In this document: piece after piece, positions 4,363 to 64,000 of the stretch
Position numbering within the stretch: the stretch's first letter is position 1
Layout of the letters: the number at the start of each line of letters is the position of its first letter
Source: Heterodontus francisci
Taxonomy: Eukaryota
NCBI RefSeq assembly: GCF_036365525.1
Contig: NC_090404.1
Coordinates: 8,618,001 to 8,682,000, forward strand
Reading direction: 5' to 3'
DNA length: 64,000 nt
The notes under the pieces: model-generated
What the model saw: only the letters and a program-made list of their open reading frames with translations
Told to the model about the DNA's origin: nothing
Database searches by the model: none
Translations under genes and position numbers: made by a program

Positions 4363-4561
4363 TAGGCGATCAAACTCAGGTCACAAAGATAAGTCTCAAG
4401 GATTCCCAGACTGGTTCTCTGTTGGTTTGGACAAGGATACAGACAGCAACACAACTGTTTAAATTGAAACCTGACAGTGGTAGTTCTCAGTGGACATGGC
4501 ATCAAAGTCACCCTGCCGATAAAGCCCCAAAGAACACTTAACGGAGCTGTAAACTGGCTGA

Positions 4562-21169: not shown

Positions 21170-24100
21170 AAAAAACTAATAAAGAGAGAAAAGATTGATT
21201 ATGAGAGTAAATTGGCAAGAACTATAAAAACAAACAGTAAGAGCTTCTATGGGTATATTAAAAGGAAGAGAGTAGCTAAAGTGAGTGTGGAATCCTCAGA
21301 GGATGAGACTTGGGAATTAATAACAGGGAATAGGGAAATGACAGACAATTTAAACCAATATTTTGCATAAGTCTTCACGGTGGAGGACACTATAAACATC
21401 CCAACAATAATAGATGAACAAGGTGTAAGTGGGAGGGAGGAACTTGGAACAATCTCTATCATGAGGGAAAAGGTGATGGACAAACTGATGGAACTAAAAG
21501 CAGACAAGTCGCCTGGACCTGATGGCCTGCATCCAAGGGTTTTAAAAGAAGTGGCTGCTGAGATAGTAGAGGCATTGGTCATAATATACCAAAACTCACT
21601 GGATTCCAGTAGTGTACCCAGCGGATTGGAAAACCACTAATGTGACACCACTACTCAAGAAAGGAGAGAGACAGAAAGCAGGGTACTATAGTCTAGTTAG
21701 CTTAACATCTGTCATTGGGAAAATGCGAGAGTCCATTATTAAGGAAGAAATAGCAGGACATTTAGAAAAATATAATGCAATCAAACTGAGTCAACATGTT
21801 TTATGAAAGGGAAATCATGTTTGACAAATTTGTTAGAGTTCTTTGAGGATATAACAAACAGAGTGGATAAAGGTGAACCAGTAGATGGTGAGTATTTGGA
21901 TTTTCAGATTTTGATGAGGTACCACATAAAAGTTGATTACAAAAAATAGGAGCTCCGGGTTTTGGGGGTAATGTGTTGGCATGGATTGAGGATTGGCTAA
22001 CACACAGAAGGCAGAGAGTCGGGATCAATGGGCCTTTTCAGGTTGGAAAGCTGTAACTAGTGGGGTGCCACAAGGATCGGTCCTAGGGCATCAACTATTT
22101 ACTATCTATATTAATGACTTGGAGTAAGGGACAGAGTGTAGAGTATCCAAATTTGCTGATGATACAAATATAAGTGGGAAGGCAAGTTGTGATGAGGACA
22201 CAAAGAATCTACAAAGGGATATAGATAGGTTAAGTGAGTGGGCAAAAACTTGGCAGATGGAGTTCAATGTGGGAAAGTGTGGGGTCATCCACTTTGGTAG
22301 GAAGAATAAAAAGGCAGATTATTATTTAGATGGAGAAAGACTACAAAAAAAGTGCTGTACAGAGGGGTCTGCGTGTTCTTGTGCACGAAACACAAAGGTT
22401 AGCATGCAGGTGCAGAAGGTAATCAGGAAGGCAAATGGGATTTTGGCTTTTATTGCTAGGGGGTTAGAGGTTAAAAGTAGGGAAGTCTTATTACATATGT
22501 ACAGGGTGTTGTTGAAGCCACACCTGGAGGATTGCGCACAGTTTTGGTCCCCGTATTTAAAGAAGGATATACTAGCATTGGAGGCAGTTCAGAAAAGGTT
22601 CACTGGGCTGATTCCTGGGATGAAGTGGTTGTCTTATCAAGAACGGCTAAAAAGGTTAGACCTCTATTCATTGGAATTTAGAAGAGTGAGAGGTGATCTT
22701 ATTGAAACATGTAAGGAGCAAGAGGGTAACTAGAGAAAGGATTGGCCCACTCAAGGACAAAGGAGGAAAGTTATGCGTGGAGTCAGAGAAAATGGGTGAG
22801 ATTCTGAACGAGTACTTTGCATCGGTATTCACCGAGGAGAGGGACATGACAGATGTTGAGGTTAGGGACAGATGTTTGATTACTCTAGGTCAAGTCGGCA
22901 TAAGGAGGGAGGAAGTGTTGGGTATTCTAAAAGGCATTAAGGTGGACAAGTCCCCAGGTCCGGATGGGATCTATCCCAGGTTACTGTGGGAAGCGAGAGA
23001 GGAAATTGTTGGGGCCTTAACAGATATCTTTGCAACATCCTTAAACACGGGTGAGGTCCCGGAGGACTGGAGAATTGCTAATGTTGTCCCCTTGCTTAAG
23101 AAGGGTAGCAGGGAAAATCCAGGTAATTACAGACCGGTGAGCCTGACGTCAGTGGTAGGGAAGCTGCTGGAGAAGATACTGAGGGAGAGGATCGATTCCC
23201 ATCTGGAAGAAAATGGGCTTATCAGTGATAGGCAACATGGTTTTGTGCAGGGAAGGTCATGTCTTACCAACTTAATAGAATTCTTTGAGGAAGTGACAAA
23301 GTTGATTGATGAGGGAAGGGCTGTAGATGTCATATACATGGACTTCAGTAAGGCGTTTGATAAGGTTCCCCATGGTAGGCTGATGGAGAAAGTGAAGGTG
23401 CATGGGGTCCAAGGTGTAATAGCTAGATGGATAAAGAACTGGCTGGGCAACAGGAGACAGAGAGTAGCAGTGGAAGGGAGTTTCTCAAAATGGAGACGTG
23501 TGACCAGTGGTGTTCCACAGGGATCCGTGCTGGGACCACTGTTGTTTGTGATATACATAAATGATTTGGAGGAAAGTATAGGTGGTCTGATTAGCAAGTT
23601 TGCAGACGTCACTAAGATTGGTGGAGCAGCAGATAGTGAAGGGGACTGTCAGAGAATACAGCAGAATATAGATAGATTGGAGAGTTGGGCAGAGAAATGG
23701 CAGATGGAGTTCAATCAGGGCAAATGCGAGGTGATGCATTTTGGAAGATCCAATTCAAGAGTGAACTATGCAGTAAATGGAAAAGTCCTAGGGAAAATTG
23801 ATGTACAGAGAGAATTGGGTGTTCAGGTCCATTGTTCCCTGAAGGTGGCAACGCAGGTCAATAGAGTGGTCAAGAAGGCATACGGCATGCTTTCCTTCAT
23901 CGGACGGGGTATTGAGTACAAGAGTTGGCAGGTCATGTTACAGTTGTATAGGACTTTGGTTCAGCCACATTTGGAATACTGCGTGCAGTTCTGGTCGCCA
24001 CATTACCAAAAGGATGTGGATGCTTTGGAGAGGGTGCAGAGGAGGTTCACCAGGATGTTGCCTGGTATGGAGGGCGCTAGATATGAAGAGAGGTTGAGTA

Positions 24101-24925
24101 GATTAGGATTATTTTCATTAGAAAGACGGAGGTTGAGGGGGGACCTGATTGAGGTGTACAAAATCATGAGAGGTATAGACAGGGTGGATAGCAAGAAGCT
24201 TTTTCCCAGAGTGGGGGATTCAATTACAAGGGGACACGAGTTCAAAGTGAAAGGGGAAAAGTTTAGGGGGGATATGCGTGGAAAGTTCTTTACACAGAGG
24301 GTGGTGGGTGCATGGAGCGCATTACCAGCGGAGGTGGTAGACGCAGGCACGATAGCGTCTTTTAAGATGTATCTAGACAGATACATGAATGGGCAGGAAG
24401 TAAAGAGATACAGACCCTTAGAAAATAGGCGACAGGTTTAGATAGAGGATTTGGATCGGCGTAGGCTTGGGGTGCCGAAGGGCCTGTTCCTGTGCTGTAA
24501 TTTTCTTTGTTCTTTGTTCTCTTTATGTAAGATTCTAAGGGGGCTCGACAGGGTAGATTTTGAGAATATGTTTCCACTCGTGGGGGAATCTCGAACTAGT
24601 GGACATAGTTACACAATAAGGGGTCAAGCATTTAAAACTGCGATGCGAATGAATTTCTTCTCTCAATGGGGTGGTGAATTTCTGGAATTCTCTACCTCAA
24701 AGAGTTGTGGAAGCGAGGTCACTAATTGTATTTTAGGAGGAGGTAGATAAGGAGGTAAGGAGGAGGAGTTTTGAAGTCTCGGGGAGTCGAGGGTTATGCG
24801 GAGCAGGCCCGAAAGAGGAGTTGAGGCCTGATAGAGATCAGCCATGATCTTATTGAATGGTGGGACAGGCTCGAGGGGCAAATAGCCTACTCCTGCTCCT
24901 ACTTCGTGTGTTCTTGTGCTCTTGT
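21170..24925 (+). mobile_element. Degraded CR1 LINE interrupted by a younger CR1
   Basis: RT fragments 21380-22733; host sequence resumes at about 24525 (KILRGLDRVD). Confidence 0.8.
22712..24524 (+). mobile_element. Young CR1 LINE, 5' truncated, long open RT ORF
   Basis: ORF 22693-24441 (582 aa) is uninterrupted but has FADV instead of FADD; ATGTAAG flanks both ends as TSD. Confidence 0.9.
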
Positions 24926-25914: not shown

Positions 25915-26170
25915 AGTATTACTGTACTTCGTCTCACCTTTATCTGTTTCCCTCTATTGGTGTCTCTTTGTATCACTATATTCCGTCTCACCTTTAACTA
26001 TCTACCTCTGTTGGTGTTTCTTTGTGTCGCTGCGCTGAGTCTCATTTTTATCTATCTCTCTCTGTGTTTGTCTCCATGTTATCACTATACTCAGTCTCAT
26101 CTTTATCTATCTCCCTCTGTTGGTGTCTCTCTGTATTACACATTTTATTCAGTTTCACCTTCATCTCTGT
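25915..26170. repeat. Degenerate tandem repeat, about 57 bp unit
   Basis: Recurrent TCACTATA..GTCTCACCTTTA..CCTCTGTTGGTGT. Confidence 0.6.
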
Positions 26171-30049: not shown

Positions 30050-30501
30050 ATGGAGCCGATGTTGTACCGTCTTCTCCTTATGTTGTGGCTAGTGTTGGGT
30101 AGGTATGGCCATGCTTTTTATCTGTTTGCAGTATTGTGATGTTAATAGACTTTTCTACTCAGTATTGAATTCAACCTTCAGTTATCTTTTATTTCAGGGG
30201 TGATTCAGGCAGATTCGGTGTCACAACCTCAGTCTGCACTGTATATCACTGAAGGAGACACTATGAAAATAGACTGTAGCTACATAACAAGCTTGGGTAA
30301 CCCCGATCTATACTGGTACCGACAGCACATGAACCTGGCTCCGCAATTTATTTTGTATCGGGACAGTAACAGGAGAAGGGATGCAGATTTTGCCAAGGGA
30401 AAATTCGAAGCCGGCCAGACGAACGCAGAAAAGAAGTTTCCTTTAACGATCACTGGAGCAGAAATCCAGGACACCGCTGTGTATTTCTGTGCACTGAGCA
30501 G
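30050..30501 (+). CDS. TCR V alpha/delta segment, intact (leader 30050-30098, V exon 30198-30501)
   Basis: MEPMLYRLLLMLWLVLG|GT; ADSVSQPQ..MKIDCSY..LYWYRQH..DTAVYFCALSS; perfect RSS CACAGTG (30502-30508), 23 bp, ACAAAAACC (30532-30540). Confidence 0.93.
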
Positions 30502-32379
30502 CACAGTGCCTTAAAACTCATCTGTCCCTGTACAAAAACCTCAGTGAAATAGAACTGCCACAGGCAGTATCTGCAGTTCAGGGGAACCCGCCGCTGTCAG
30601 TAAGTGTCAGTGGTAACTCTGTCACTTCTCTCGTCCAATTTGTCTAAATTATAACATTGTGGGTTCAAATCCACTCCAGAGGCTGGAGTGCATATTGCAG
30701 TCCAACACTTCTGTTGTCCGTATTGATCGAGTGCAACAGTGTCGCAAGTGCCATCTTTCAGATGCGCTATTAAATGGAGGTTCCATCTGAACGAACCCAC
30801 CGCAATATTGTGTAAAAGAGCAGGAAAGCTCTCCTCCACATTTATCGCTTAATCGACATCACTAAAACAGATTATTGCATTGGCCTTTATGGGATCTTTT
30901 TGTGCTCATATTGGCTGCCGTCTTTCCTGCATTCCAGTAGTGACTGCGCCTTAAAATTGTTTCACTGGGACGTGTGGGACAGGCTGAACGGACCCGAGCG
31001 TCCTTTGCTATATGTGCTCGTTAGTATATTCAATATTACAACTTGTGGGCCTGTCTCTTCACATCATTTTGAGTTTCTCACTCAAGACTCGCTCAGATGA
31101 CGTCAATTACCTGACTGACCTCAGGACCGGCCATTGGGCACTGCGTCTTTCGAGGAAGCAAATGGGGGGCTCTTTGCACCAATCAGCGAACAGTACTTGA
31201 GCACAGTCTCTTAAAAAAAAGCTTTTCAAATAGCGTACAGCATAGAACTGGATTCAGAGCAGCTCGTCTTCCATTTTAAGATTATTTGACTCATTAATCT
31301 GCTCAGCCTCACTCCTCTACCTTCTCTTTACCCACATCCGACAAAACAGGGCTTTTGATGACCTAGGTTTTTTTTGAGCGAAGTAAAGCGAAAACCGCAG
31401 GATGTCAGTTACGTTGATTAAATAAAAATCCACGATGTGAGTTTTCCGAGATCCTCTTGCGGGTTTTAACCCTGATCAACGGTTTCCATCAATTGCTTAT
31501 GAAGTCAAGGCAGCATTAACCTCCATATTATTAGCTTTCTGTCACCCTTTTGTGTTCGGTGTGTGTAAGAGTGGGATAACAGGAAAAAGAGAAAGGATAG
31601 CAATCCTGGAAATATTTCAAAAAAGCTTAGTCACCCCGCAGCGTACTTAAACCCAATCTTGCTGATATTTTCAGTGGATCATCAGGAACTGTTACCCGTC
31701 ATATTGGTTCTAAAAGTCCCCCCATTGTGGAATGAGCGCTTCATAGACATTTTCACATCATTGACACACGCCATGTCAGAACCGGAATCAATGACGTAAA
31801 TAGAGGTGGACAAATACTCTGATTCATAAATTCTACAAAACACAAATAAGGAGACAAATCAGGAATCTAACGGAATGCGGCAGGCAAAGGTATCACGTTA
31901 CTTTGGAATTCGTTTCAATTTTATTTTCCAAGCTACCTGATGCCACTTCTTAAACGTTACTGAAGTCGAAATATTTCAGTGAAAAGGAAGTGACGCCCAA
32001 ACGCGAACAGAAATCCTTGCCGTTAAAGACCACAATCAAACTCAGTTTGTAAATGCCCCGGCGCAGGAAAGAGCAAGAGATTTCGGCAGAAAAATAACTG
32101 CGGGAAATTCAAAACTTTCTTTCCGAGAAAGAGAAAACAAAATATGTGTCTGTGTGTTTTTTGGCCGATTTTGTGTTTCTGAATGTCTGTCTGTACAGTT
32201 CTGGAAATGGAACAGAGGAAGTCGGATTAATTGCAAAACCAAGTTGTTTTGGTAGAATAATAAAACGAATATCTAATGTTTCCGTTCTATTTCTATCTCT
32301 CTTTGTCTCTTCTCTATTTCCATCTCGCTCTGCAAGAAAATCTCCATCGACACTGCCCCATGAAACACTCCGAGAAAAC

Positions 32380-32760
32380 GTAAAATATGGATTAGATACA
32401 GAGTAAAGCTCACTCTGCAACGTCCGATCAAACACTCCCAGGGCAGTAGAGCATGGGTGAAATACAGAATAAAACTCACTCTACACTGTCTGATCAAAGA
32501 TTCCCACAGCTGATACATCTCGGTTAGGTACAGAGTAAAGCTTCTTTTACACTTTCCCATCAATCACTTCCAGGGTGAGTGCAGCATGTGTTGGATCCAG
32601 ATTGAAATTTCTTCCTATACTGTCCTATCAAACATCTCCTGATCAAATACAGCATGGCTTAGATAAAAAAGTAAAGATCCCTCTATATTGTCCCGTCAAA
32701 TATTACCAAAGAAGGTACTGTTTGGGTCAGATGCAGGTTAAAGCTCACTCTATCTCAGAA
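32380..32760 (-). repeat. Degenerate copies of the ~68 bp satellite-like repeat
   Basis: AGATACAGAGTAAAGCTCCCTCTACACTGTCCCATCAAACACTCCCAGG-like units. Confidence 0.6.
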
Positions 32761-38479: not shown

Positions 38480-39260
38480 TGGCATGTGTTTGACGGTAAA
38501 GTGTAAAGGAAGCTTTAATTTGTATCTGATCTGTGCTGCACCTGCCCTGGGAGTGTTTGATGGGACCGTGGAGAGGGAGCTTTACTCTGTTTTTGACACG
38601 TTTTTGTTTTTCTTTTTTTAGGAGGGAGACGGGATCACGTCGGGCGCTGTGCAATGAATTCAGAACTGAATCACAGTGTCGAGGGAGCTTTACTCGATAT
38701 CTAACCCTTCATAGTGAGGTACTGCTTGAACGCCAGGTTATTCACTACCTCCATGTCGCATTTATTGGTGGCCTATAACAGGTAGTGGCAATGAGAATAG
38801 AGGGGTGCTTTACTCCGTATCTAACCCCATGATTTTTCTTTTTTTCCTAACCCCGTGCTGTACCTGTCCTGGGAGTGTTTGATGGGGGACAGTGTAGAAG
38901 GAGCTTTACCCTGTATCGAACCCCGTGCTGTACCTGTTCTGGGAGTGTTTGATGGGGACAGTGTAGAGGGAGCTTTACTCTGTATCTAACCCCGTGCTGT
39001 ACCTGTCCTGGGAGTGTTTGATGGGACAGTGTGGAGGGAGCTTTACTCTGTATCTACCCCATGCTGTATTTGCCCTGGGAGTGTGTGATGGGACAGTTTA
39101 GAGGCAGATTTATTCTGTATCTAGCCATTTTTTTTCATTTTTCTTTTTTTCTTTATCAGCCAGGGTTCCTGCTCCTGATCTCTATCTTACCCTTGCTAAA
39201 TCTGATCTGAGAGTGATTGGCCAGGCAGCGTTCAAGGAGCATTTATCTGCATCTAAACAA
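38480..39260 (+). repeat. ~68 bp tandem satellite
   Basis: TGTATCTAACCCCGTGCTGTACCTGTCCTGGGAGTGTTTGATGGGACAGTGTAGAGGGAGCTTTACTC units. Confidence 0.85.
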
Positions 39261-47209: not shown

Positions 47210-50200
47210 CTGTTAAGGCACAAGTGAAAAATGCAAGGCTGGATTGCATCTACTTTAACGCAAGAAGTCTTACAAGGAAGGCAGATGAATTGAGGGCGTT
47301 GGTTAACACATGGGTATATGATATTATTCCTATCACAGAGACATGGTTAAGGGAAGAGATGGCAGCTCAGTATTCCAGGGTACACAATCTTCAGGCGTAA
47401 CAGCGCGCGGGGTGGTGGGGGGGTGGGGGGGGGGGGTGGGTGTGGAGGGTGGGGTGGTGGGGTAGGTGTAGAAGAGGAGGTGGCATTGCACTATTGATCA
47501 AGGAGTCAATTACTGCAGTAAGGAGGGATGATATATTAGAAGGTCCCTCAAATGAGGCCATATGGGTAGAATTTAAAAACAAAAAGGGGACAATCACATT
47601 GCAGGGAGTGTAAAACAGTTCTCCAAACAGTAAAGGTGAGATAGACGAGCCGATATGTAGGCAAATCTCATAGAGGTGTAAAAATAATAGCGTAATAATA
47701 GGGGATTTCAACTTCCCCTATTCGCCAACTTTAAGGGCATTTAAGTGGTCATTGGATAGACATATGGATGAAAATGGAATAGTGTAGGTCAGATGGTTTC
47801 ACAGGTCGGCGCAACATCGAGGGCCGAAGGGCCTGTACTGCGCTGTAATGTTCTAATTCTAATTCTATATTAACTGTGATTGTCTTAGTACAAAAGGCTT
47901 AAAGGGGGCGGAATTCTTAAAGTGCATCCAGGAGAGCTTTTTGAGCCAGCACGTAGAAAGTCCTACAAGACAAGGGGCGGTACTGGACCTAATCTTCGGG
48001 AATGAAGCCGGACAAGTGGTGGAAGTCTCAGTGGGGGGGGGGGGGGGGGGGGGCATTTCGGGGATAGTGACCATAACTCTGTAAGATTTAATGTAGTTAT
48101 GGAAAAGGACATAGATGGACCGGAAGTAAAGGTACTGAGTTGGGGGAAGGCAGATTTCAATATGAGTCATCGAGAGAGATACAGCACTGAAACAGGCCCT
48201 TCCCTCAATTCTCCTACCACCTACCTACACTAGCGGCAATTTACAATGGCCAATTTAGCTATCAACCTGCAAGTCTTTGGCTGTGGGAGGAAACAAGAGC
48301 ACCCGACGGAAACCCACGCAGTCACAGGGAGAATTTGAAAACTCCACACAGACAGTACCCAGAACCGAACGTGGGTCGCTAAAGCAGTGATGCTAGCCAC
48401 TGCGCCACTGTGCCAAAATGATTCAACAAGATCTGGTCAAAGTGGACTGGGAACAGCTACTTATAGGAAAGTCTACATCAGATCAGTGGGAGTCATTCAA
48501 AAATGAAATAGTGAGAGTTCAGGGCCATCATGCTCGTGTAAACGTGAAGGGTAGGACTAACAAGCCGAGGGAACCCTGGATGTCAAGCGATAGAGAGGAT
48601 TGGATAACGAATAAAAAAGGAGGCTTATGGCAGATTCACAGGGCAGAAAACAATGGAGGCCCTAGAGGAGTATAGAAAGTGCAGGCGGTACTTTAATAAG
48701 TAATTAGGAGAGCGAAGGGGGTGGCATGAAAAACACTGCAGGCAAGATAAAGGAAAATCCCAAGGCCTTTTATAAGTATATCAAGGGCAAGAGGATCAGC
48801 AGGGAAAGACGAGTGCCCATTAGGGACCAAAGCGGCAATCTCTGTGTGGAACCGGAGGACGTAGGTGAGGTTTTAAATTATTACCTTTTCATCTGTGTGC
48901 ACTATGGAGAAGGACGATATAGCTGTAGAGATCAAGGAGGGGGATTGTGATAGACTTGAATAAATTAGCATTGAAAGAGAGGAGGTATAACGGTTTTAGC
49001 GGTCTTAAAAGTGGATAAATCCCCAACGCCCAGATGAGATGTATCCCAGGCTGTTGTGTGAGGCAAAGAAGGAGATTGCAGGGGCACTGACACAAATTTT
49101 CAAATCCTCTCTGGCCACAGGAGAAGTGCCAGAGGACTGGAGGACAGCGAATGTGGTACCATTATTCAAGAAGGGGAGCAGGGATAAACCAGGTAATTAC
49201 AGGCCGGCTAGTCTAACATCAGTGGGAGGGAAACTAATGGAAAAAATTCTGAGGGACAGGATTAATATCCACTTGGAGAGGCAGGGATTAATCAAGGATG
49301 GTCAGCATGGCTTTGTCAAGGGGAGATCATGTCCAACAAATTTGATCGAATCTTTCGAGGAGGTGACTAGGTGTGTAGATGAGGATAAAGCTGTTGAGGT
49401 AGTCTACGTGGACTTTAGTAAGGCTTTTGATAAGAGCCTGCATGGTAGATTGGTCAGGAAGGTAACAGCCCATGGGATCCAGGCCAATTTGGCAAATTGG
49501 ATCCAAAATGGGCTTTGTGGCAGGAGGCAGAGGGTGATTGTCGAGGGTTATTCTTGCGATTGGAAGCCTGTGACCAGTGGTATACACAGGGATCGGTGCT
49601 GGGACCCTTGCTCTTTTGTAGTGTACATTAATGATTTAGAAGTGAATATAGGAGGTATGATCAGTGTGTTCGCAGATGACACGGAAATTTTTGGTGTTGT
49701 AAATAGTGAGGAGGAAAGCCTGAGATTACAGGACGATGTAGATGGGCTGGTAAAATGAGCAGAGCAGTGGCAAATGGAATTTAATCCTGAGAAGTGTGAG
49801 GTGATGCATTTTGAGAGGACTAACAAGGCAAGGGAATATACAATGGATGGTGGGGCCACTGGAAGTACAGAAGGTCAGAGGGACCTTGGTGTACTTGTCC
49901 ATAGATCACTGAAGGGAGAACCACAGGTAGATAAGATGGTTATGAAGGCATATGGGATACTTGCCTTTATTAGCCAGGGCATAGAATATAAGCACAGGGA
50001 AGTTATGACGGAGCTACATAAAACGCTAGTTCGGTCACAGTTGAAGTACTGTGTATATTGCTGGGCACCACACTATAGGAAGGATGTGATTGCACTGGGG
50101 AGGGTGCAGAGGAGATTCACCAGGATGTTGCTGGGCTGGAGCATTTAAGCTACGAAGGGAGACTGGATAGGCTAGGGTTGTGTTCCTTAGAGCAGAGAAG

Positions 50201-51098: not shown

Positions 51099-52849
51099 GG
51101 CCATTTCACAAATCTCTGAAAGTATCATTGGTAAAAACCTGAAGAAATTGCCCCAGACCATTAAATCACTGCTTCATTCTTTATTCCTCGTTTAAATGAT
51201 CGGTTGGACTTCGGACTCTGTGGATTTTTCTTATCTGTTTCTCACTATTTCTGCATTCAGACAATGAAATGTGTTGTCTTGGTGATTCTCAAAGTTAAAT
51301 ACCTTCAGTTAATCGATCCGAATCTACCACTGAGACAAAAGGAAAACGTGAATTCCAACATTCTGTTTGAAAAATCCATTCGTGTGTGAGATAATCGTGG
51401 CTATAATGTTTGACAGTTGCTTGACTATTTCAGATGCATGTAAATAAAGTTTCTCATTCCTTATTTATACTTGTTCCCTTCCCTTTATCTTGAGTCTTTG
51501 TTTTTCCCGGAGCCTGGGGCCTATGTGACACAGAGACACGAACACACACAAAACCTTGGAAAGGTTCACAGAGACTGGGGCCCCAGGACATTGCAAAAAG
51601 CGCAAACTCTGGCATTTATTCACATAGACTGGGGCTGATCTGACAAATCTATCTCTGCCACAATCTCGCACCTTCCCCCCTCATATCCATGGCCTCCTTC
51701 CCTCTCATCTCATTCACCGTATCCTTAATTTCTCCCCGGGCTCCCGTTGAACCTCGGCTCGGGTAGCTCAGAAGGTATGAGATCACTTTAAGAGGCCGGA
51801 GTTCACCCCCGCCACCGGGGTCACAGTCCTGGGTCACGAACCACATTCAGCACAAGCAGAAGTTCTTCATCACTGAACGGAGGATGATGACGCCCCTTGA
51901 CCCGGATTGAATGTGAGAAACAGCCCATCGCGGCGCTGTGACATAAAACAGGATTGTGACGTCTTCCGCGAGAGGGCAAACCGGTGGCCATCTTTGTTTG
52001 GCTGAAAACACTGTAAATGTCTTCCGTTTCTGTCTATAAATCACCTTTATTGAAAGGAACAGTGACTTAAGTTTTCATTAAAGAAGCCGTTCGATCTAAA
52101 AGGATAAACGCGAATGTTTGGTCAAGGGACACTTTTAAATAATTGTCCTTAAAGCGGTTGGGGTGATGCGCATGTGCGGCCCGTTCTCCCAGAGAGCAGC
52201 ACGGTCCGTACTGCAGATGGGGGCCTTTCACAGCCGCTGTGAATTGTGGGAGAAGCCACCCTCAATCACCCAATTATTAACTGAGTGTTTGCAAATCCAC
52301 AATAAAAACAGGAAGTGCTGGTGATACTCAACAGGTCAGGCAGCATCGGTGAAGAGAAAAACAGAGTTAACGTTTCAGGTCTCTGACCTTTCATCCTCCT
52401 TCCAGCAGGGACCTGCCCAGGCTATTGGTCCAGAAGGACTGCGGATGTCTGTTGAACGGAGAATCTCTGATTGGACAAAGAATCCTGGAAATCCCAGGAG
52501 GTGTTCATCAACGCAAACGGGAAAGATGGATTCGAACAAAGAAAAAAAAAGAAACTTTACTGGTCCCTGTGAAAACCGGCGCACAATATATTTAACCTGT
52601 AGGGTGAGACACGACTAAGCAAAATATACATTTTTATGGAAAGAATCACTTTATGTACTCAGAAAGAAGTGAGAATGTGGAGTAAATGCAGGATTAATTT
52701 AATAGAGGAAACGAATAGGAGATGAGAAAAGAGCAATGCTGAAGGGTGTGAGTAGGAAAAGGAAAGTGCAGACTGAATGAGCTTAATGAAGTTTTGCTGC
52801 ACGGTAAAATTCTACGATTAATTGAAATTGAATATTTATACACTTTTGC

Positions 52850-53243
52850 CATGCTCTATATCACTGCGTCTCTGCCATTCACACCATGTGCAGGTTTTTG
52901 TTCAGCTCTCTCCGTGCTCTGTATCACTGTGTGTCTGTAATCTACACTATGTTCAGGTTTTTGTACAGCTCTCTCCGTGCTCTGTATCACTGTGCTGTAA
53001 TCTTCACTATGTTCAGGTTTTTGTACAGCTCACTCCGTGTTCTGTATCACTGTGTGTCTGTAATCCCCGCCAAGTTCAGGTTTTTGTACAGCTCTCTCCG
53101 TGTTCTGTATCACTGTGTGTCTGTAATCCCCACCACGTTCAGGTTTTTGTACAGCTCTCTCCCTGTTCTGTATCTCTGTGTGTCTGTAATCCCCACCATG
53201 TTCAGGTTTTTGTACAGCTCTCTCCCTGTTCTGTGTCACTGTG
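52850..53243 (-). repeat. Tandem array of six 23-RSS (60-63 bp period) plus a decayed seventh unit
   Basis: Plus-strand GGTTTTTGT-23-CACTGTG: nonamers at 52893, 52956, 53016, 53079, 53142, 53205; heptamers at 52925, 52988, 53048, 53111, 53174 (CTCTGTG), 53237. Confidence 0.95.
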
Positions 53244-53549
53244 CTGCGCGCCGACTCAGTTCACAGTAATACACAGCGGAGTCGCTCAGTTGCAGATTGG
53301 AGATTTTTAACCGGCTGATTTTCTCGGCAGGATCGATAGAAGCAGAAATTCGTCCCCCGGCTGCGGTTTCTTTATTATCCGCTCCTGAAGTTTGTATCTG
53401 AAGCAGGTATTTCGGAGCCTGCCCTGGGGACTGACGGTACCAGTGTACTGTGTACTGACAGAACCCTGAATATTCGCAGCTTAAAGTAACGGTGTCACCG
53501 GCAGCAGAGGTTTGCAGAGGCGGGCTCCGGGACACCAGGGAACTGGAAT
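53244..53549 (-). CDS. NAR-TCR supporting TCR V-delta (leaderless, CDR1 Cys)
   Basis: CCTGCAG acceptor; DSSSLVSRSPP..VTLSCEYSGFCQYTVHWYRQSPGQAP..DSAVYYCELSRRA; perfect 23-RSS; no ATG leader seen upstream; phase matches the J donor at 58916. Confidence 0.9.
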
Positions 53550-55039
53550 CTGCAGGATAAAAATGAATATTATCAATGTTTAGCCGGCGTTTACGCGGAG
53601 AAACTTGTCAATCGCAGGAATAGTTCTTTTTTTCGCGGTAATTTGCGTAATTTGACGCCTGTTCGAAATGTATTCACCGTTACTGAGATATGAACCAGTG
53701 CGGAGATGATGTGTATTTTATTTTGCACAGGGAGTTGTTCTGATCTGGAATGCAATGTCAGAATGGGTGGTAGAAGCAGATTGATATTAACTTTCAAACG
53801 GGATATGGATAAATGTTGGACCAGGAAAATGCACGGGTCATGGAGGAAAAGCAAGGGGGAATGGGAACAATTGGACAGCACCGACAAAGACGATGGGCCG
53901 AATGACATCCCTCCATGTTGTCTGATTCAATGATTCTATTGAATTTCTGTGTCTATTTTTCTTGGTGGAAGGCAAACTGGAGGAAACATTTTAATATCAG
54001 TGAGAGAATCACTTTACAAAAACTGTCAGTCCGAGAGTGTTATTTCAGTACGCACAGTAAGATCCAACAGAGAGCAATGAAATTCATCAGCACAGATTGA
54101 GCGAAACTGACAGTGAACATCAAAGGTCATTCGTTGACAACAGTTCAACACTACATGAGAGCTCATTGTTGCCTTTCACTCTATTTGTCTAGTTTCTTGC
54201 ATCAAAAGGGCCCATTTGTCTCTATTTCCCTCTAATTTGAAAAAAAAATGAAGTTAGTTTCATTTTATTTCTACATTTACTTTGTGCTGTTTGCGGTTCT
54301 TGCCATCATGGGAACTTGTCCCGAAGTCTCTCAGTTGTCAGTTGGGTTCAGTTTGTGCTATTTCCGCAGTGGTTTTACTGTTACTGACTGGGAACTGGCT
54401 CTTCTGGATCACTGACAATTTCAATTCCTTCAGCCCATTGGATAATTCACTCCTGTGTTCTCCAAGCGGAGTTTTCTCTGAATTTTATTTTGTACAGAAT
54501 CTGCAGAGCAGGAACAGGCCATTCGGCCGAACCGTTCTATACCAGTGTTTGTACTCCACACAAGCCTCCCGCGCCCGGACTCTAATTAACCATTTCCACC
54601 CTGAACCCTCTGTCCCTCTATTCATTGCTTCCTCCTTTTTTTTTCAAGTCGGCCCATAAATGCATCAATCCGATCGACTCCAACCACTCCATGTGGCAGC
54701 GAGATCCACATTCTGCCCTGTCTCTGGGTAAATGAATCCTGCTTAATTAATTTATTCCGTCAGTGACATCATATATGAATGTCTCCTTATTCCGGATTCA
54801 CCCACAGAAAATAGTTTCTCCATATCCAGCAGCCCATAATTTAAAAATGTCCATGAAGTCTCATTATTTTTCTCTGTTTTCCAGGGGAAAGAAGCCCAGC
54901 CTGTTCAAACATTCCAGATGGTTGTTGATTTTTTTCAGGATTTCTCAGTTTTTCAGGAGGAATATACGTTCCTCTAAGATTCAAAAACCCAACAGGAAAG
55001 ATGAATTAACCATGACTAACAAAACAAGTTAAAGATTAC

Positions 55040-57340
55040 ATTAGATCAAAGGAGGTGGCTTAAAGGATTGCCAAAAAAGTGTTAAACCCGAGGATTGGGA
55101 GCAATTTCGAATCCAGCAAAAGATGAGCAAGAAACAGGGAAAAGAATATGAATGCAAGCTCGTGAGAAACATAAAGGCAGACTGTAAAAGCTTCTCTAGA
55201 TATGTGAAAAGGAAAAGATCAGTAAGGATAAAACTGGGTCCATTACAAGCGGAGACAGGAGAATTTATGACGGAGAATAGGAAAATAGCAGAGAAACTAA
55301 ACAATTACTTTCTGTCTCTATTTACGAGGAAGATGCTGAAAATCCCCCAGAAATACTAGGAAACCAAAGGACTTGTGAAAATGAGGAACTTAAATGCCGT
55401 AGTATGAATAAAGAGGTAGCACTCGAAAAATAAACTGGATTGAAGGTTGATCTCTCTGGACCAGATGAGCTACATCCCAGAGTGTTGAATATTTATCTAT
55501 TTTTATATTTAGAGATACAGCACTGAAACAGGCCCTTCAGCCCACCGAGTCTGTGCCGACCATCAACCACCCATTTATACTAATCCTACATTAATCCCAT
55601 ATTCCTACCACATCCCCACCTTCCACCTATGCTAGGGACAATTAATAATGCCCAATTTACCTATCAACCTGCAAGTCTTCGGCTGTGGGAGGAAACTGTG
55701 GGAGCCCCCGGTGAAAACCCACGCGGTCACAGGGAGAACTTGCAAACTCCACACAGGTCGTTGGAGCTGTGAAGCTGCAGTGCTAACCACTGCGCCACTG
55801 TGCCGCCCAGTTGAAGGAGGAGGCGACAGAGATTGTGGATGGTTTGGTGATTATCTTTCAAAATTCTATAGATTCTGGAAAAGTTCCCGCAGACTGGAAA
55901 GTAGCAAATGTAAACCCGTTGTTTAAGAAAGGAGGGAGAGTGAAAACAGGGATCGAGAGACCTGTTAGTTTGACCTCAGTAGTAGAACAATGTTAGAATC
56001 TATTATAAAGGATGTGATAACTTGTTATTAGAAAATAACGTTATGATTGGGGAGAGTCAACATGGATTTATGAAAGGGAAATCATGTTTGAGAAACCGGT
56101 TGGAGTTTTTTTTAGGAGTTTACTTGTAGCATAGATAAATGAGAACCAGTGGATGTGTGCATTTGGATTTTTAGAAAGTTTTTGATAAGGTTCAACACAG
56201 GAGATTATTAAGCAAAATTAGAATGTGGGATTGGGGGTAATACACAGGAATGGATTGAAAATTGGTTAACAGAGACAAAACAAAGGATACGAATAAATGG
56301 GTCATTCTCAGGATGACAGGCTGTGACTGGAGGGGTACCGCAAGGATCCGGGCTGGGCCACAGCTGTTCACAATGTATATAAATGATTCGGATCTGGAGA
56401 CCACATATAATATTTCCACATTTGTTGATGACACAAAAATAAGTGGGAATGTAAGTTGTGAGGATGATGCGAGGAGGCTTCAAGCGATCTTCGGTGAATG
56501 GGCAGGAACTTGGCCAATGGAACATAATGTGAATCAGTGTGAAGTTATCCACTTTGGTGGATAAAATGGATTTTTAAAAAAACAGAAAGACAGAGTATTT
56601 GTTAAATGGTTAGAAGTTGGGAAGTGTGTTTTCCAAAGGGACCTGGGTGTCCTTGTTCATGAGACACTTAAAGCTAGCATACAGGTGCAGCAAGCAATTA
56701 GGAAGGCACATGGTATGTTGGCCTTCATCGCAAGGGGTTTTGAGTACAGGAGTAAAGGCGTACAACTGAGATCGTACCTGGAGTATTGTGTACAGTTTTG
56801 GTCTCATCTTAGAAAGGATAGTCATTCCGTATAGGGAATGCAACGGAGGTTCGCCAGACTAAACCCTGGGATGGCGGAATTATCCTATGAGGAGAGATTG
56901 AGAAAAGTGGGCATGTATTCTCTAGAGTTTCGAGGAATGAAAGGTGATCTCACTGAAAATTGCAAAATTCTTACAGAGCGTAACAGGATGGATGGAGATA
57001 GGATGTTTCCCCTGGCTGGTGTGTCTAGAACTAGGGGACTTAGTCTCAGAATAAGGGGTAGGCCATTTAAGACTGAGATGAGGAGGAATTTCTTCACAAA
57101 AAAAGTACTGTATTTTTGGAATTCTCTACCCCAGAGAGCTGTGGAAGGTCAATCATTGAGCATGATCAAGACATAAATCGATTGATTTCTGGATAATAAT
57201 GACATCAATGGATATGGGGAAAGCACGGGAAAGTGGCGTTGAGGTAAATGATCAGCCATGATGTAGTGGAATGGCAGTGCAGGCCCGATGGGCTGAATGG
57301 CCTACTCCTGTTCCAATTTCCGATGTTCCTGTATTCCTAT
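55040..57340 (+). mobile_element. Degraded CR1 LINE with nested HE1-like SINE (~55500-55808, minus)
   Basis: Fragmented RT ORFs; SINE flanked by GTTGAA. Confidence 0.82.
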
Positions 57341-57364
57341 GAATGTAAGAAATCGAAGCTGATC

Positions 57365-57900
57365 ATATAGGAACATCAGTAATAGGAGCAGGAGTAGACC
57401 ATTCCACCTTTCAAGTCTGCTGCGCCATTCAATAAGATCAAGGTTGATCATCTACTCCATCTTCCCGCACTATCCCTAGGTCCTTTAATTCATTTAGTAT
57501 CCACAAATCTATCGAACACTGCCTGGAATATACTCAGCCACTGGGCATCCACAGCTCCCTAAGGTATAGAATTCCACAGAGTCAGAACAGAAGTTTGAAT
57601 GAAGAAATTTCTCTTCTTCTCAGTTCTAAATGACGACCCCTTATTTTTGACTCTAACCCCAAGGTGTAGACTGAGGAAACACCGCCCCAACACCTACCCT
57701 GTCAAAGCCCTTCGGAAATTTATATGTTTAACGAGGTCATCTCTTATTCTTCGAAACACTACGAATATATGCATAGTCTTGTCAAACTTTCCTCATAGGA
57801 CTATCCTCTTATCCCAGGAATCAGTCTCGTGGACCTTTGTTTCACTCCCTCCAAAGCAAATAGATTCTTCCTTAAATAAGGTGATTAAACTGCACACCGC
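57365..57900 (-). mobile_element. CR1 LINE 3' fragment
   Basis: Reverse complement of the CR1 3' region (FFTQR-like motif, 3' UTR). Confidence 0.65.
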
Positions 57901-58916
57901 AGTACCCTGGAGAACACCAGAGTTCATCACTGCCCTTCCCTCCATAAACTTCACCCTGGTGTTGGATTGTACTTCGAATGGCTTCGTTTAATATTTCTAT
58001 CCATTTCGGTGAATTATTTTTTGCTGGTTCTAAATAGTTTGTCCTCCAGTCTGTACTTTTTCCCTTGAGTGTTCGTGATCTCCTTTCTCAGAACATTAGC
58101 ACCTCATCCTCAATCCCTCAGTGTCCAGTATTGTTTCAATTAACAGTTAGCAGGGTTACAGTTAAATTACTCCAATCCAATCTCTCAAACATCAATATTT
58201 AATATAGAGAATTATCTGGAACTGAAAACATTCGCATTTCAGTCTGAGGGCGGAAAAGGAGGGAAATGATTGGATGAAGGCAATTGAAATAAATTTCATC
58301 TACAATATAACTAATTTCAGTCACTGAATCCCAATAATAAAATGCCATCGGCACCTACAACAGGATCTCTTGTATCTGAAGCCTGTTTTGTCATGTTGCC
58401 GTTTTTCTGCTGCTGCAGATATCGGGCCGGCTGCTGTCGTATAGTGTTCACTCTCCCTCTATTCACATTGCCCGGCTCGGACAACAACCTCTCCCCCGGG
58501 AGAGAGTTCTGTGACCCCGCTCATGTGCTCACAGGCACAGTCACATGGAACACCGAGAGCGGGGTCGGAGTGTCGACAAACTGAGTTCATTTAGGAGTGA
58601 GGGAAAGAGAGTAAATCCGGAATGTTGATGGGATGCTCGGACATGCCCGTGAAACCAATGCTAATCCAGATGGAGTCAAAGCTACCCGGGCCAGACTGCC
58701 TGCTCTGTGGGGGTGTCACATCGACTCACTCGGGAATCACACCCGGACCCGACTCCTGGTTCATATTCTGTTCCCCAATCTAAAACTGCAATGGAAAAGC
58801 TCCATTGGAAACCGCTGTGTTTTAGTTTGAAGGGGATTGAAGTGTTACTGAAAACAATGATAAAGTGACAATGAGCATTTTACAGAGATGGCCTGTATGG
58901 GTTTGGAGTCACTTAC

Positions 58917-58980
58917 CGGCTGTGACAGTCACCACCGTCCCGGATCCATCTGCAGAATCATCCTTCCAGTAATTATATAC
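58917..58980 (-). CDS. NAR-TCR J segment
   Basis: VYNYWKDDSADGSGTVVTVTA G|GTAAGT; 5' RSS: heptamer 58981-58987 consensus, 23 bp, nonamer ACAAGAAGT 59011-59019. Confidence 0.9.
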
Positions 58981-59385
58981 CACAGTGACACCGCTACCAG
59001 TCACCCTGGTACAAGAAGTACCGACACCTCAATCTCCCAGCCGCACATCACCAGATAGTTGGTGATGCTCAATTATTCCAGGGGTTTTAAATCATTTCAC
59101 AATATTCCCTTGTTTCACAATCCATATCTGTTCAAACTGTTCTTTTTGAGACTCTGAGCTCTTAGTGAAATGGCCCAGGAACAGGGGCCGGATTTGGGCG
59201 CTTGATATAAAAGGAGAATAATGTCAATGAATAATGTCAAAGAAAGCGAACTGAAAGGAGGAAATTACAGTGAAATTAAACCAGATTACATCGATAATAA
59301 TATCAATCCTACAATTCAGGATCTGGACCTGGGGTATTTATATTTGGATTTTACAGAGGTATTTGCTCAGATCTCAAACACTGTG

Positions 59386-59399
59386 AATATCCCAGTAAA
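59386..59399 (-). other. NAR-TCR D segment (TTTACTGGGATATT) with 12/12 RSS
   Basis: Plus strand: GGTATTTGC-12-CACTGTG [D] CACAATG-12-ACAAAATCC (59358-59427); all three minus-strand frames are open. Confidence 0.9.
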
Positions 59400-59790
59400 C
59401 ACAATGTCTCAAGTCAGCACAAAATCCCCCGGTACCGGGTGAGATGTGGGGACATTAGTTTAACAGCGGAGACTGCGGTTCCCGGTTCCAGCTGATAGAT
59501 CAGGATCCCATCTGGTGTTAGGAATTTGGAACTGGGATCAGTCATTCCCAATCTCCATTCACTGACACAAAGCCCGGGAATGACATCACCATCCGCATAC
59601 ACTCGGTATTTATAAAACTCAAGATGTTAACGGAAACAATCCAATAACATTATAAACTAGACTGTGGGACGGACGGTGCGAGGGGGAACTGTGGGGTTTA
59701 ACGGCAGATTAACTCCGTTTTTTGATTTGTTTCTGTGATTATCTGCAGTGAGAGTTTTTGTACCGCGGGAAGCCGAGGCCCATCACTGTG

Positions 59791-60274
59791 TGTTCTTGTA
59801 CCTGTACTCAGCTTTACAGTAATAGGTGGCGGTGTCTTCAACTTTCACATCCCGAATTTCCAGAGAAAATGTCTTTTCTGCCTTATTCGTCCTCACAACA
59901 AATCGCCCTCCACCAGAGATCCGCTCCCGCTTGGTCCCGGTCTGGGTTTGTCTGAAGAAATATCCATTTCGGAATTGATAATTCCAATACCCACCTTCAG
60001 TGTAAACACAGGTGATGGTGAGAGACTGACACTCCTTCCTGGTCACCGCTGCCGGGGTCTGTGACACCGACTGACTGAAAGAGCCTGGAAATTAAACAGA
60101 GAGAGTTTAATGGGCCATCAGAGCCGAACCACACAACGAGGCTAAAATCCGAGACAGTGCCTATAATTCGGATGGACTCGGGCAGTTGATATTAAATCCA
60201 CACAATGTCGGTTTGTTTGATCGGTACTCACGGGGTAAACAGACACACAGGGTGAAAACAAGGAGGATTTCCAT
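59791..60274 (-). CDS. NAR-TCR V segment, intact (leader 60232-60274, V exon 59791-60084)
   Basis: MEILLVFTLCVCLP|GTGAGT; QSVSQTPAAVTRKECQSLTITC..GYFFRQ..RERISGGGRFV..KTFSLEIRDVKVEDTATYYCKA: IgNAR-like (short FR2/CDR2, ERIS.GGR), extra FR1 Cys; RSS CACAGTG, 22 bp, ACAAAAACT (59753-59790). Confidence 0.92.
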
Positions 60275-60296
60275 CGTTCTGCTGCCTGGAGCTGAT

Positions 60297-60310
60297 GGTT
60301 TATATGACGG
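60297..60310 (-). promoter_or_regulatory. TATA box with adjacent CRE half-site upstream of NAR-TCR V
   Basis: CGTCATATAAA about 25-35 bp upstream of the ATG; conserved at ~19237-19248 in the paralogue. Confidence 0.5.
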
Positions 60311-62519
60311 GGAGATGGAGAATGCAGCCCTGGACTGCTCTGGGAGACTGGACCTCAGAGCTGGACTGAAATACTGCAGGGCGTTCGAGTTGATTTGCAG
60401 AGGGCAGTATCCCGGAGATCATTGAAGGGCCGCACGGTTCCCGGGTCTCTGACTGTGATGTGTGAATAAGAGACAGGTTTAAAGAGGAAAGCTGCAGTTT
60501 TCGGTCACTTCATTGGGTCTGTGAGCCCGATGTGAAATCCCCTCCCACATTAGTCTGATGTACAGGGGGTGGGGTTGGGGGGGGGCGTGGTTTCTGTCAG
60601 CAGAAGCTGCCGCCCTCCTTTCCCCCACAGTAATGAGCTGGGAGGTCGCTCCATGTGTTTTTATTGAGTGGTGTTTGTTGAGGGTGGAATGTGGGCCCAG
60701 GACACCGGGAGAATCCCCCCTCCCCGCTCTTATTCCAATAGTGCCGGGGATTCTTTAACATCTCCCTGAACGGGCTGGCGAGGCCTCGGTACAACGTCTG
60801 ATCTGAAGGACGGAGCCTCAGACCCGGCAGCTTCCCTCAGTCCAGTAACTGGCGGTCAGGTTACAATATGAGACAGTCCAGTGACATTGTCAATATCCAG
60901 GCAGATATACACAATAGACACAAAGAATAAACTCTCCCTGTCATTTAAAGACATGCTTCCAGCAGTCTCCTCTTCTGTGGTTTGTATTTAAAACGATGTT
61001 TGACTTCAGTAATGATTGATTTCCAGGTCTGCAATATTCAGTTTCCAGTTGCAGTGACAGAGAATGAAGAGATACTCGGAAGGACAATGGACATCGGGGG
61101 AACTCTGTGCTTGGGACTTGTTTTAAAGATCACAGTCACTACCTTGTGCATTCCGTTTATTTTGTATAAACTGTCTCTGCCCCACTCTGATCAAATAAAC
61201 CTTGTGAACAGGCCGCGGTTAAAGGCTCCGGGAAACTGACGGGGAGACAGGGAAAGGGCTGCTCAGTACAAAAGTGGAGTTGTGGATCACAGCCCGGCAC
61301 ACACATGGCCAATGGTTTAATGGATCTCGCAGCACCTCCAGATGAGGCTGCCGCAGGGTCCTAATGTCCCCCTGAATACTAAACACTCATCTGCTTCATC
61401 GAAACATCATTAAAGACCACACACAAACTGTCTGCTTGATACATAATTTTTGCACATCAAGTATTTATCCAATTGCCTTTTACTTTTGAATGTTACAATT
61501 GAATCTACTTCCACTGCTCTGTCAAATAAACTCTTAGCATAAAATTGTTTTTCCTCATGTCTACATCAGCAAGTTGTATTTATAGAGCGGCTTTAACGTA
61601 ACGAAGCATCCCGTCTGCAGGTAGGGACAGAGATCTTGTTGAAATATGATTCTTGCAGAGGCCAATATTGCAGAGTTCTTAAGGCACCGTCTGTACTCGC
61701 ACTAACAGAGCAAGGAATATTAGGAATGTTAATAACACTCATGTTACTGCACAGCCCAATTTAAAGAGTTCACGAATCCTTGAAAATAATCTGAAGGAGA
61801 AATGATGAATGATTGAAGTTATTTCAATCCCCACTTCATGGAGGTTTTCATGAACTTGGTGAGGGAGCAGAGGAGATTTAATAGACTGTGATCAGCTGTG
61901 GGGAACTTGTGGAGAGGCTAGAGAAACCGCAGTTATTCTCTATATGTGACATAAGATTAAGGAGATTTAATTGTGAGGTTCAAAATTATATTGGGTTTTG
62001 ATATAATAGATCGTGTGTAACTGATTCCAGTGGCAGGAAGTTTGATATCCCAAGGACACAGATTTCAGGGAATTGCCACAAAAGACAGGGGAGAGGAGAT
62101 TTTTTTTAAAGGGCGAGTTTCATTATTTGGAATGTACAGCCTGAAAGGGTGGAGGAAGCAGATTCAATAGTAATTTTCAGAGAACTGTATATGTGCTTGA
62201 ACAGGGCTGTATGAGAGCATGGCAAGTAAGACTAAGGCGATAGCTCTTTCAAAGAGCCGGCGCAAATACGATGGGCCAAATGGTATCATTCGTGACTGTG
62301 TGATCCAATGTTTCTAGTCGCTTCATTTCTCCCGCAAGTCAGTTGTTCCCAGTCACCTAAACAGTGATCAGGTGCAGCCTGGCAACAGAATTCTGACATC
62401 CAACTATCTCCCTTTCCACTACATCAACATCCTCACTGCGCAATCTCTGCGGTTCCACAGAATCTTGAGTTCACTCAAACTGGAGTTGGCGGCAGCCCCG
62501 CCCACAGCTTTAGTTTGCT

Positions 62520-62695: not shown

Positions 62696-63200
62696 ATGTA
62701 GAACCGTCTCTCGCCGCTTCTCATTATTATATCACTTCTCAGTAAGTATTTGCTTCCCAGTAAAAATCCATTCTCCACAGAGCTGTTAATATGGGTGAAA
62801 TGATAGTGATGATGGTGTTGATGGTTAGATTGATCCATATAGTATTGATGCTCATTGTACTATTTTTTGTATGTTTGAATGGAGCCACCAAGACACAATA
62901 TAACAGCCGGTTCCTGAAATGATGGTTGAAGGGGAAAGTAATATCACACTAACGTGTACCATGAAAACAAGCATTTCTAAAACTTTGCATGTTCCCGTAC
63001 AGTCAGCACCCCGGGCAGCCTCCACAGTACGTGTTTTATCTCTATGGGGTGATAGTTCACCGGAACCCCGACTTCACTGAACGATCCTCTTCTACCTTCA
63101 GCAAAACTGCCAAGATTACCCAGCTAAAGATCCACAACTCCCTGATCTCTGGCACCGCTGTGTATTTCTGTGCCATCGGGTGCCATGAGCCCCACCCCGC
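62696..63200 (+). pseudogene. TCR V pseudogene, paralogue of the 8543 and 16323 Vs
   Basis: Leader ATG TAG (stop at codon 2); acceptor lost; ..GTAVYFCA..; RSS decayed. Confidence 0.8.
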
Positions 63201-64000
63201 TGCAGAGATGTTGCTGACACCGGATTCACTGAGAGTTGCAGTTAGAGCTCACCAGAGGGCGCCCTCACACCAGTAAACAGAAGCAATAATTCAGCCTCCA
63301 CTCTGAGATTCTCAGGAACCTTCTTAAAATTGCAATGAAGCACAGCAATCAACAGCCACAGCTGATGTCCACTTGTGCAGTTATATTAGACAGTGATTAC
63401 AACGCACATTTATAAGAAAAATGAACTTTATATTCGATTTCTGATGCCTTGGCTCCCTTTTTGTTTTCCGATGCTCTCCCCCTGTCCACTTGTTCCTCAT
63501 TATCGCGTGGCTCCACTGTTCACCGAAAAGTGAATACTTTTCCTTTTTAAACCTTCAGTTTAAAGGTTTAAAACTTTTGTTTCTGTTCAGAATATAAATG
63601 CAGAACCGTTCCAATCGAGCTTCTAGAAGCAGGAGCTGTGGGATCCGGCCAAAGGCTCAACACAGAATCCCTCACATCCTGTTCACTGCCATCTGACCAC
63701 TACCCAGTACAGCCACCAGAGGGCGGCAGATAGCAATACTCCTTTCATGGATCAAACGTTGGGCAGTAAGGTGATTTCTGTTTCTCCAAAAGCTGAGTAA
63801 AACTTGGAATATATAGAAGTTTAATACTTGAAATCAATTTACCTCAATGGATTGGGAATGTACATTGAATAATAATCCTCACAAAGATGCATCCACGTAT
63901 CGAACGATTGGTTTCTGATACTAACCAGTGAGCAGGACAAGTGAGTGGAAGTTGTGGAAGATGGTGAAAGAATATTAAAATGTGAATGACAAACACACTC

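Follow-up and report, generated by a model that had tools for sequence, protein, structure and literature searches.

Cartilaginous fish possess a doubly rearranging T cell receptor (TCR) delta chain, the NAR-TCR (Criscitiello et al. 2006), which is considered here as summarised in PMC1845163, PMC5931798, PMC3457774 and PMC12227049. Its sequence features, as set out in the first of these, are a leader-bearing NAR V segment with a cysteine in the a-b loop of framework region 1 (FR1) and without the tryptophan of the WYRK motif, and a leaderless V-delta segment with a cysteine in complementarity-determining region 1 (CDR1). Two other systems are close enough for comparison: the IgNAR antibody clusters, with three D segments per cluster (PMC4279169), and the TCR-mu of marsupials and monotremes, described as a chain of three extracellular domains in which a rearranging N-terminal V stands on a supporting V. 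The comparison also drew on PMC6795676, PMC5931798 and PMC3149040. Here we describe 64,000 nucleotides of Heterodontus francisci DNA (NC_090404.1, positions 8,618,001 to 8,682,000 of the forward strand; this whole stretch is termed the window, with position 1 as its first letter), the minus strand of which very probably carries an intact NAR-TCR cassette, likely serving a three-domain delta chain, with six tandem recombination signals that are predicted extra cutting sites for RAG.

The cassette parts were parsed from the minus strand of positions 52500-61500. The leader exon of the NAR V (60274-60232, minus) starts with an ATG at 60274 and comprises 43 nt, i.e., 14 codons plus one nucleotide, ending in phase 1; it is followed by a GT-AG intron of 147 nt (60231-60085, minus) and the open, IgNAR-like V exon (60084-59791, minus), which it joins in frame. 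This NAR V exon contains KECQS with the extra FR1 cysteine, FFRQ (without tryptophan) at the WYR position, and YYC, and its recombination signal sequence (RSS; 59753..59790, minus) reads CACAGTG-22-ACAAAAACT, with a spacer of 22 nt and one nonamer mismatch. The single D segment (59399-59386, minus) is 14 nt long and open in all three frames, and is flanked by two 12-RSS, of which the 5' signal (59400..59427, plus) has one heptamer and one nonamer mismatch, and the 3' signal (59358..59385, minus) has no heptamer mismatch and two in the nonamer. The J segment (58980-58917, minus; 64 nt) has a D-G-S-G motif and a phase-1 donor, and is served by the weakest signal of the cassette, a 23-RSS (58981..59019, plus) with consensus heptamer, spacer of 23, and three nonamer mismatches. 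An intron of 5367 nt (58916-53550, minus; GT-AG), which contains interspersed repeats, leads to the open, leaderless supporting V-delta exon (53549-53244, minus) with its CDR1 cysteine in GFCQY, and the splice from J is in frame, G plus AT TCC encoding Asp-Ser. The cassette is free of stops and frameshifts, its splice sites are all preserved, the four canonical cysteines and the two extra ones are present, and the CAC is intact in every cassette RSS. Behind the supporting V, a first 23-RSS of perfect consensus (53205..53243, minus) opens a tandem array of six 23-RSS units (52869..53243, minus), with heptamers at 53243, 53180, 53117, 53054, 52994 and 52931. Twelve strict RSS were counted in the window and none in any of the 30 sequences simulated under a first-order Markov model, which rules out chance. 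A sequence-only reading of this DNA had listed leader, V with 22-RSS, 12/12 D, J with 23-RSS, intron, and leaderless V-delta with 23-RSS, and had predicted the in-frame phase-1 splice; all of these were recovered at its positions and in its frame, and the cassette is indeed complete as it claimed. It overlooked the five further near-perfect 23-RSS behind the V-delta signal and the weakness of the J nonamer.

The identity of the locus as a germline NAR-TCR cassette is virtually certain, as the same reading had proposed. All the sequence features that PMC1845163 gives as defining were found in it, together with its own D and J and a position interspersed among TCR alpha/delta V genes: its surroundings hold three open V-set genes with 23/24-spaced RSS plus several broken V pieces, on both strands. 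In a sequence search against solved structures the eight best matches of the NAR V were all shark VNARs (best E 4.9e-18), which beat VH and VHH by several orders of magnitude. Among 58 longer homologs, 56 of them from named sharks, 56 also contain a supporting V, and most read as leader, NAR V, J and second V. The extra FR1 cysteine was present in all 56 scorable homologs and the CDR1 cysteine in 55 of 56, so that the cysteines to which the sequence-only reading had drawn attention are family-wide; the phenylalanine that replaces the WYR-position tryptophan is invariant in the NAR V alignment. The unusual J motif is normal for the NAR-TCR family, since D-G-x-G was seen in 49 of 54 homolog J motifs, those 49 beginning with D, and none of the 54 began with F or W. 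The nearest named relative, P0013 of Heterodontus francisci, is 87% identical in NAR V and 91% in supporting V; P0023 of white shark (LOC121270138) is 73% and 82% identical, respectively, and bears the label NARTCRdV in Table S1 of PMC12227049.

The first V and the 12/12 D also resemble an IgNAR antibody cluster, which is likewise compact and has a VNAR-type V with a 22-nt spacer and a J with D-G-x-G rather than W/F-G-x-G. An IgNAR cluster with an unrelated TCR V downstream is nonetheless refuted and retains only a vanishing probability: the cassette has one D where IgNAR has three, its V is 60-87% identical to NAR-TCR V homologs, and its J splices to a second V instead of constant exons. The next in-frame exon is the leaderless V-set exon, which follows J in 56 of 58 homologs and which contigs enter, one of them linking NAR V to supporting V (below); the intron was not searched with constant-domain profiles. 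TCR-mu, VH-delta and TAILV were likewise considered and rejected, as the V is not VH-related and VNAR matches outrank those to VH and VHH. TCR-mu shares the three-domain plan, and the model of one homolog (P0042) could be aligned with a marsupial TCR chain over 219 residues (Z 15.2, rmsd, i.e., root mean square deviation, 10.9); however, published accounts describe the TCR-mu V domains as VH-related, each cluster as having its own C, and the resemblance as convergent.

Structure modeling and phylogeny were in agreement with this identity. In the P0042 model (mean predicted local distance difference test score, pLDDT, 82.8), the best match of the first domain was a VNAR (Z 18.8, rmsd 1.1, 104 aligned); that of the second was a TCR-delta V (Z 17.2, rmsd 2.0, 113 aligned). 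In a tree of 66 domains, built on few columns and with bootstrap not fully settled, the window's supporting V belonged to a clade of 31 rows (support 99/97) from which the three conventional V genes of the window were absent, and its NAR V was placed inside the NAR-TCR V rows, closest to Heterodontus P0013. Both V segments shared well-supported clades with the white-shark locus labelled NARTCRdV, in line with the phylogenetic check that had been suggested. As IgNAR V rows were left out, the tree did not separate NAR-TCR V from IgNAR V. The sequences of P0042 and P0063 run in the order V-junction-J-V-junction-J-C, from which we infer that both are chains that rearranged twice and carry J and C. 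In P0035, the constant region that follows the NAR-TCR V pair matched human TCR-delta C at E 1e-11, as against E 2e-4 for full-length TCR-alpha chains. Overall, the cassette is a member of the NAR-TCR on every feature tested in its sequence, and, being of a known kind with many copies in many sharks, it is ordinary as a cassette.

Two of the gene models, P0011 of Heterodontus and P0012 of Carcharodon, contain two NAR V-J units before one supporting V, and one NARTCR locus in Table S1 of PMC12227049 has three V and shares its NCBI description with P0012; such models could represent a four-domain chain or a model artefact. In Mustelus, P0019, P0021, P0029, P0035 and P0038, all named TCR-alpha-like, join at least two distinct TCR-delta-like constant regions to NAR-TCR V pairs on five different contigs, which may reflect several delta loci.

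The order of rearrangement can be read from the signals. Under the 12/23 pairing rule, as given in PMC2193808, the 22/12/12/23 layout makes V-D-J the only possible product, and a relaxed RSS scan of 53549-59900 returned the four cassette RSS positions only, which means one D and excludes a second; further copies of D, J or supporting V elsewhere in the window were looked for and rejected. The earlier claim that the 12/12 layout forces a single D was thus borne out. Its contrast with 12/23 TCR-delta D segments has a published parallel in the platypus only, for which such asymmetric segments are described. As to the lack of a leader on the V-delta, hydrophobicity-scored ATG-GT candidates included no leader-like exon within 500 nt upstream of its acceptor. 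The best near candidates scored 1.2, at 544 and 1256 nt, and one of 2.8 lay 3.1 kb upstream, inside the repeat-rich part of the intron; all four control V genes, in comparison, had a leader-like exon (hydrophobicity 2.9-3.1) at 100-148 nt upstream.

In the mechanism that we propose, RAG would join the NAR V to the single D and the D to J, all inside 0.8 kb, and the supporting V would join shared D-delta as well as J-delta elements outside the window, as the homologs indicate. Transcription from the NAR V promoter would then yield leader-V-D-J, which a phase-1 splice would connect with the leaderless V-delta; the latter would presumably reach the surface only beneath the NAR domain. The NAR V would stand unpaired atop V-delta, and a predicted disulfide between the FR1 and CDR1 cysteines would likely fix it there; the bond is a published prediction, and both cysteines are conserved, as shown above. 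A complex prediction of the two V domains scored 0.02 and gave no verdict, and a Foldseek search with the homolog model returned only single-chain variable fragment (scFv) chains, at rmsd mostly 15-21, and was uninformative on the disulfide.

Transcript evidence came from three runs of one sample, in the form of contigs only and presumed to be RNA, which were compared with window positions 53181-60400, a span in which only the first array unit lies. Contigs of both X1 and X2 lack precisely the 147 nt of the leader intron. The X1 contig that reaches J (record 7) carries the germline sequence upstream of J, then J itself, and departs exactly at the donor (58917), and X1 record 1 begins at the acceptor of the supporting V. 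The most informative contig, X2 record 11, consists of 59961-59795 (the 3' half of the NAR V), 61 unlisted letters, and 53549-53412, all in frame. Its NAR V portion ends four bases before the heptamer and has 20 differences in 167 (88% identical); its supporting V portion enters at 53549 and has a single difference in 138 (137/138 identical). We infer from length and frame that the unlisted letters include J, making this contig an in-frame rearranged NAR V joined to supporting V. The contigs stem from paralogs or alleles and support the predicted splices at the family level: leader splice, J donor and V-delta acceptor are used in contigs of close paralogs, as the RNA check suggested by the sequence-only reading had envisaged. 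They also argue, at the same level, against the case that it had named as its own refutation, namely no J-to-V-delta splicing or a V-delta expressed from its own leader.

X1 record 7 (58917-59135) is likely a spliced germline, or sterile, transcript through a cassette. Another spliced contig extends upstream to 60381, beyond a TATA-like motif. This motif is part of a cluster upstream of the leader (60400-60299, minus) that is also kept in the pseudogene copy described below, and that comprises a putative octamer-like site (7/8), a putative CRE half-site and the TATA-like motif. Paralogous cassettes appear near-identical in the supporting V and divergent in the NAR V (99% as against 88% in X2 record 11), and two Heterodontus supporting V domains (P0013, P0030) cluster in the tree and their NAR V do not; this pattern would be expected if selection diversifies the domain that binds antigen, if the supporting V is being homogenised, or if cassettes are mixed.

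Whether the window copy itself is used is a separate matter, and here the claim of an apparently functional cassette is not established, even though that of a complete one stands. Several results weigh against it or against the larger scheme. The three nonamer mismatches of the J 23-RSS make for a weak signal; the expressed contigs differ from the window copy at diagnostic sites, with Gly for leader Glu at 60270 in X1 and X2, Ala for Glu at 53261 in all three X1 contigs, and five differing positions in the X1 J; the J-to-V joint is not among the joints listed (125 further rows lay outside the listing); and D-delta, J-delta and C-delta lie outside the window. The weak J signal and the contig residues could be the marks of a real NAR-TCR cassette without expression or with little use, one of the paralogs that look intact in a family evolving by birth and death. 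The residues of the contigs at 60270 and 53261 are those of the family majority, the NAR V has a broken orphan duplicate at a distance of 41 kb, and the productive signal faces five non-productive competitors. Such a copy has, however, kept every open frame, splice site and cysteine listed above, and the CAC of all its RSS; nonamer changes are often tolerated, according to PMC2193808; a supporting V identical to that of the window at 137 of 138 positions is expressed in a rearranged contig; and the contig sample may be another individual or species. A silent copy is considered unlikely, and the exact copy in the window probably usable.

The orphan duplicate of the NAR V (19212-18696, minus) retains leader, V and 22-RSS and is 86% identical over 1170 bp; it has an in-frame stop in CDR1 (18926-18924), and the homology stops about 245 bp past the RSS, with no D, J or supporting V after it.

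The feature that sets this cassette apart from the NAR-TCR as described is the six-fold tandem 23-RSS behind the supporting V, which is not mentioned in the portions of the literature covered. The units repeat with a period of 63 nt, one being 60 nt; five match the consensus perfectly, and the remaining one departs from it at one heptamer position. They are 83-95% alike, with no two identical, so that assembly collapse or stutter was rejected as the source, and they show distal decay, ending in a seventh unit (52830..52868, minus) that has lost its CAC and has five nonamer mismatches. All six spacers are 23, the only indel falling in a linker, and the variable columns are 1 of 16 in heptamer plus nonamer compared to 15 of 47 in spacer plus linker (one-sided Fisher p 0.037). 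The array was absent from all five other RSS-bearing V segments of the window and from all 27 outside V genes, metagenome-contig loci that served as single-RSS controls; the latter are not independent; 26 are at 33-44% identity and one is an 18-residue match, two have less than 110 nt of flank, and one has a second, weak RSS-like match 271 nt off. No close relative of the supporting V was found in the metagenome scan. A tandem RSS behind a V gene was not found described in the searched literature, in which PMC13433984 held nothing relevant and which excluded the primary NAR-TCR papers, where the D layout or repeated signals may be described. The array is possibly an unreported feature of a known system.

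Other sharks were approached through their gene models, in which protein read-through of the 3' flank was scored by a shuffle-calibrated threshold. Of 56 homolog tails, 26 had at least 24 residues, 12 read through the first signal, and six were long enough for a second one. A second RSS copy passed in three of these six, P0040, P0048 and P0052, from Stegostoma, Rhincodon and Hemiscyllium; P0056, P0057 and P0064 failed the threshold. In addition, the match of a sawshark model to the unit stays in register (63 nt) across the linker and extends six codons into a second unit. These translated tails suggest a second RSS copy behind the supporting V in other sharks, and the array may be family-wide and not particular to this copy.

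If the downstream copies are recognised, the outcome can be deduced from the translation, in which codon 104 of the V frame becomes a stop when the copy 1 heptamer is retained. Copy 1 is thus the only array signal that leaves the V frame open, and any join at copies 2-6, which keeps copy 1, places a stop in the V frame and is non-productive. Such a join would leave the V beside the D/J cluster with a perfect signal, copy 1, and a second, short join could then follow if a 12-RSS remains downstream. The analogy with secondary rearrangement at the mouse Igk locus (PMC13190342) is of interest only as such: strong proximal RSS capture RAG there, a strong RSS alone can drive capture, and the first join prepares a second, short one. 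The spare signals of Igk, in contrast, belong to other V or J segments, whereas in the cassette a single V is followed by the tandem copies, to which no coding segments belong. Table S1 of PMC12227049 places seven white-shark NARTCR loci at 8.4-17.1 Mb, three in plus and four in minus orientation, the farthest as much as 9 Mb away from the constant region. It is conceivable, if rather improbable, that the array is a conserved and selected two-step device of 'dock and trim', of a kind not known to be described for any antigen receptor locus, by which a leaderless V lying megabases off in either orientation would first be captured at one of the spare signals, the proximal signal serving for the second cut. 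That the downstream copies are really cut in thymocytes is fairly likely; that the array is kept by selection has somewhat less than an even chance.

The case for a selected role has its own weak points: copies 2-6 cannot themselves yield a productive chain, the test of column conservation was post hoc and small and used non-independent units, and the support from other sharks consists of peptide read-through, in which the second copies of the carpet sharks look decayed and differ in period. The array could also be a neutral minisatellite, produced by slippage or unequal crossing-over of signal plus linker and kept by gene conversion between cassettes, without any selected role. Units that are 83-95% alike, decay distally and end in a dead seventh are what such a process would leave; decayed carpet-shark copies of another period, non-productive downstream joins, and the commonness of tandem expansion in this window (25 rows of tandem repeats) agree with it. 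Minisatellites without RSS content were indeed seen at 25916-26168, 32392-32539 and 38847-39123, with periods of 54, 66 and 69 bp. A purely neutral repeat is harder to reconcile with signal columns that vary less than spacer and linker, with six spacers all held at 23, with a second unit in models of three carpet-shark genera and another begun in register in sawshark, and with the restriction of the array to this V among the segments compared. We regard the neutral explanation as nearly an even proposition. A different role would be that of a brake, in which the copies nearest the D/J cluster take RAG first and waste joins, lowering use of the supporting V or delaying it, for instance until the NAR V-D-J has been made, and so tuning the share of NAR-TCR cells. 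In the account of PMC13190342, linear scanning uses the proximal strong RSS first, and five of the six targets give a stop, both of which would suit a brake; yet each wasted join still leaves copy 1, so that brake and capture differ only in the number of 12-RSS remaining downstream. A brake is quite unlikely.

As regards significance, the cassette offers a clean germline example of a known receptor with exact borders for V, D, J and supporting V. Automatic annotation misnames such genes, the homolog gene models being entered as uncharacterised, DSCAM-like, TCR-alpha-like or IgG-like. The array is of greater importance than the cassette. With two rearrangements on one allele, and cassettes spread over about 9 Mb in both orientations, the array bears on how a T cell completes both, and it may give the supporting V extra chances to reach distant joining partners. 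As the six signals are 63 bp apart, joins at each copy could be told apart by their position. Should the copies prove to be both used and selected, V(D)J recombination would be steered here in a manner that is new; otherwise the array is a harmless minisatellite of which annotators should be aware.

The rest of the window holds other V genes and repeats. Three V genes of the conventional TCR alpha/delta type, each having a single RSS and an open V exon, were found at 11481-10974 (minus), 30051-30540 (plus) and about 8750-9086 (plus), the last with a CACACTG heptamer and a spacer of 24. Frameshifted or decayed V pseudogene pieces occur at about 16060-15730 (minus), 4950-4560 (minus), 3650-4400 (plus) and 62850-63260 (plus); those at 15.9 kb and 63 kb have a common N-terminal motif with the V at 8.8 kb, and the three look like one family. 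Isolated RSS-like matches with two to four mismatches and no adjoining V are located at 10900 (plus), 10908 (minus), 9174 (plus) and 51529 (plus); two of these overlap each other and lie about 100 bp behind the V at 11 kb. Long open stretches resembling the reverse transcriptase of long interspersed elements (LINEs) were recognised by eye at 15276-13516 (minus), 22128-24438 (plus), 7663-6476 (minus), 49009-49755 (plus) and 2677-714 (minus), and a repeat resembling a short interspersed element (SINE), at about 55500-55810, had very many matching contigs.

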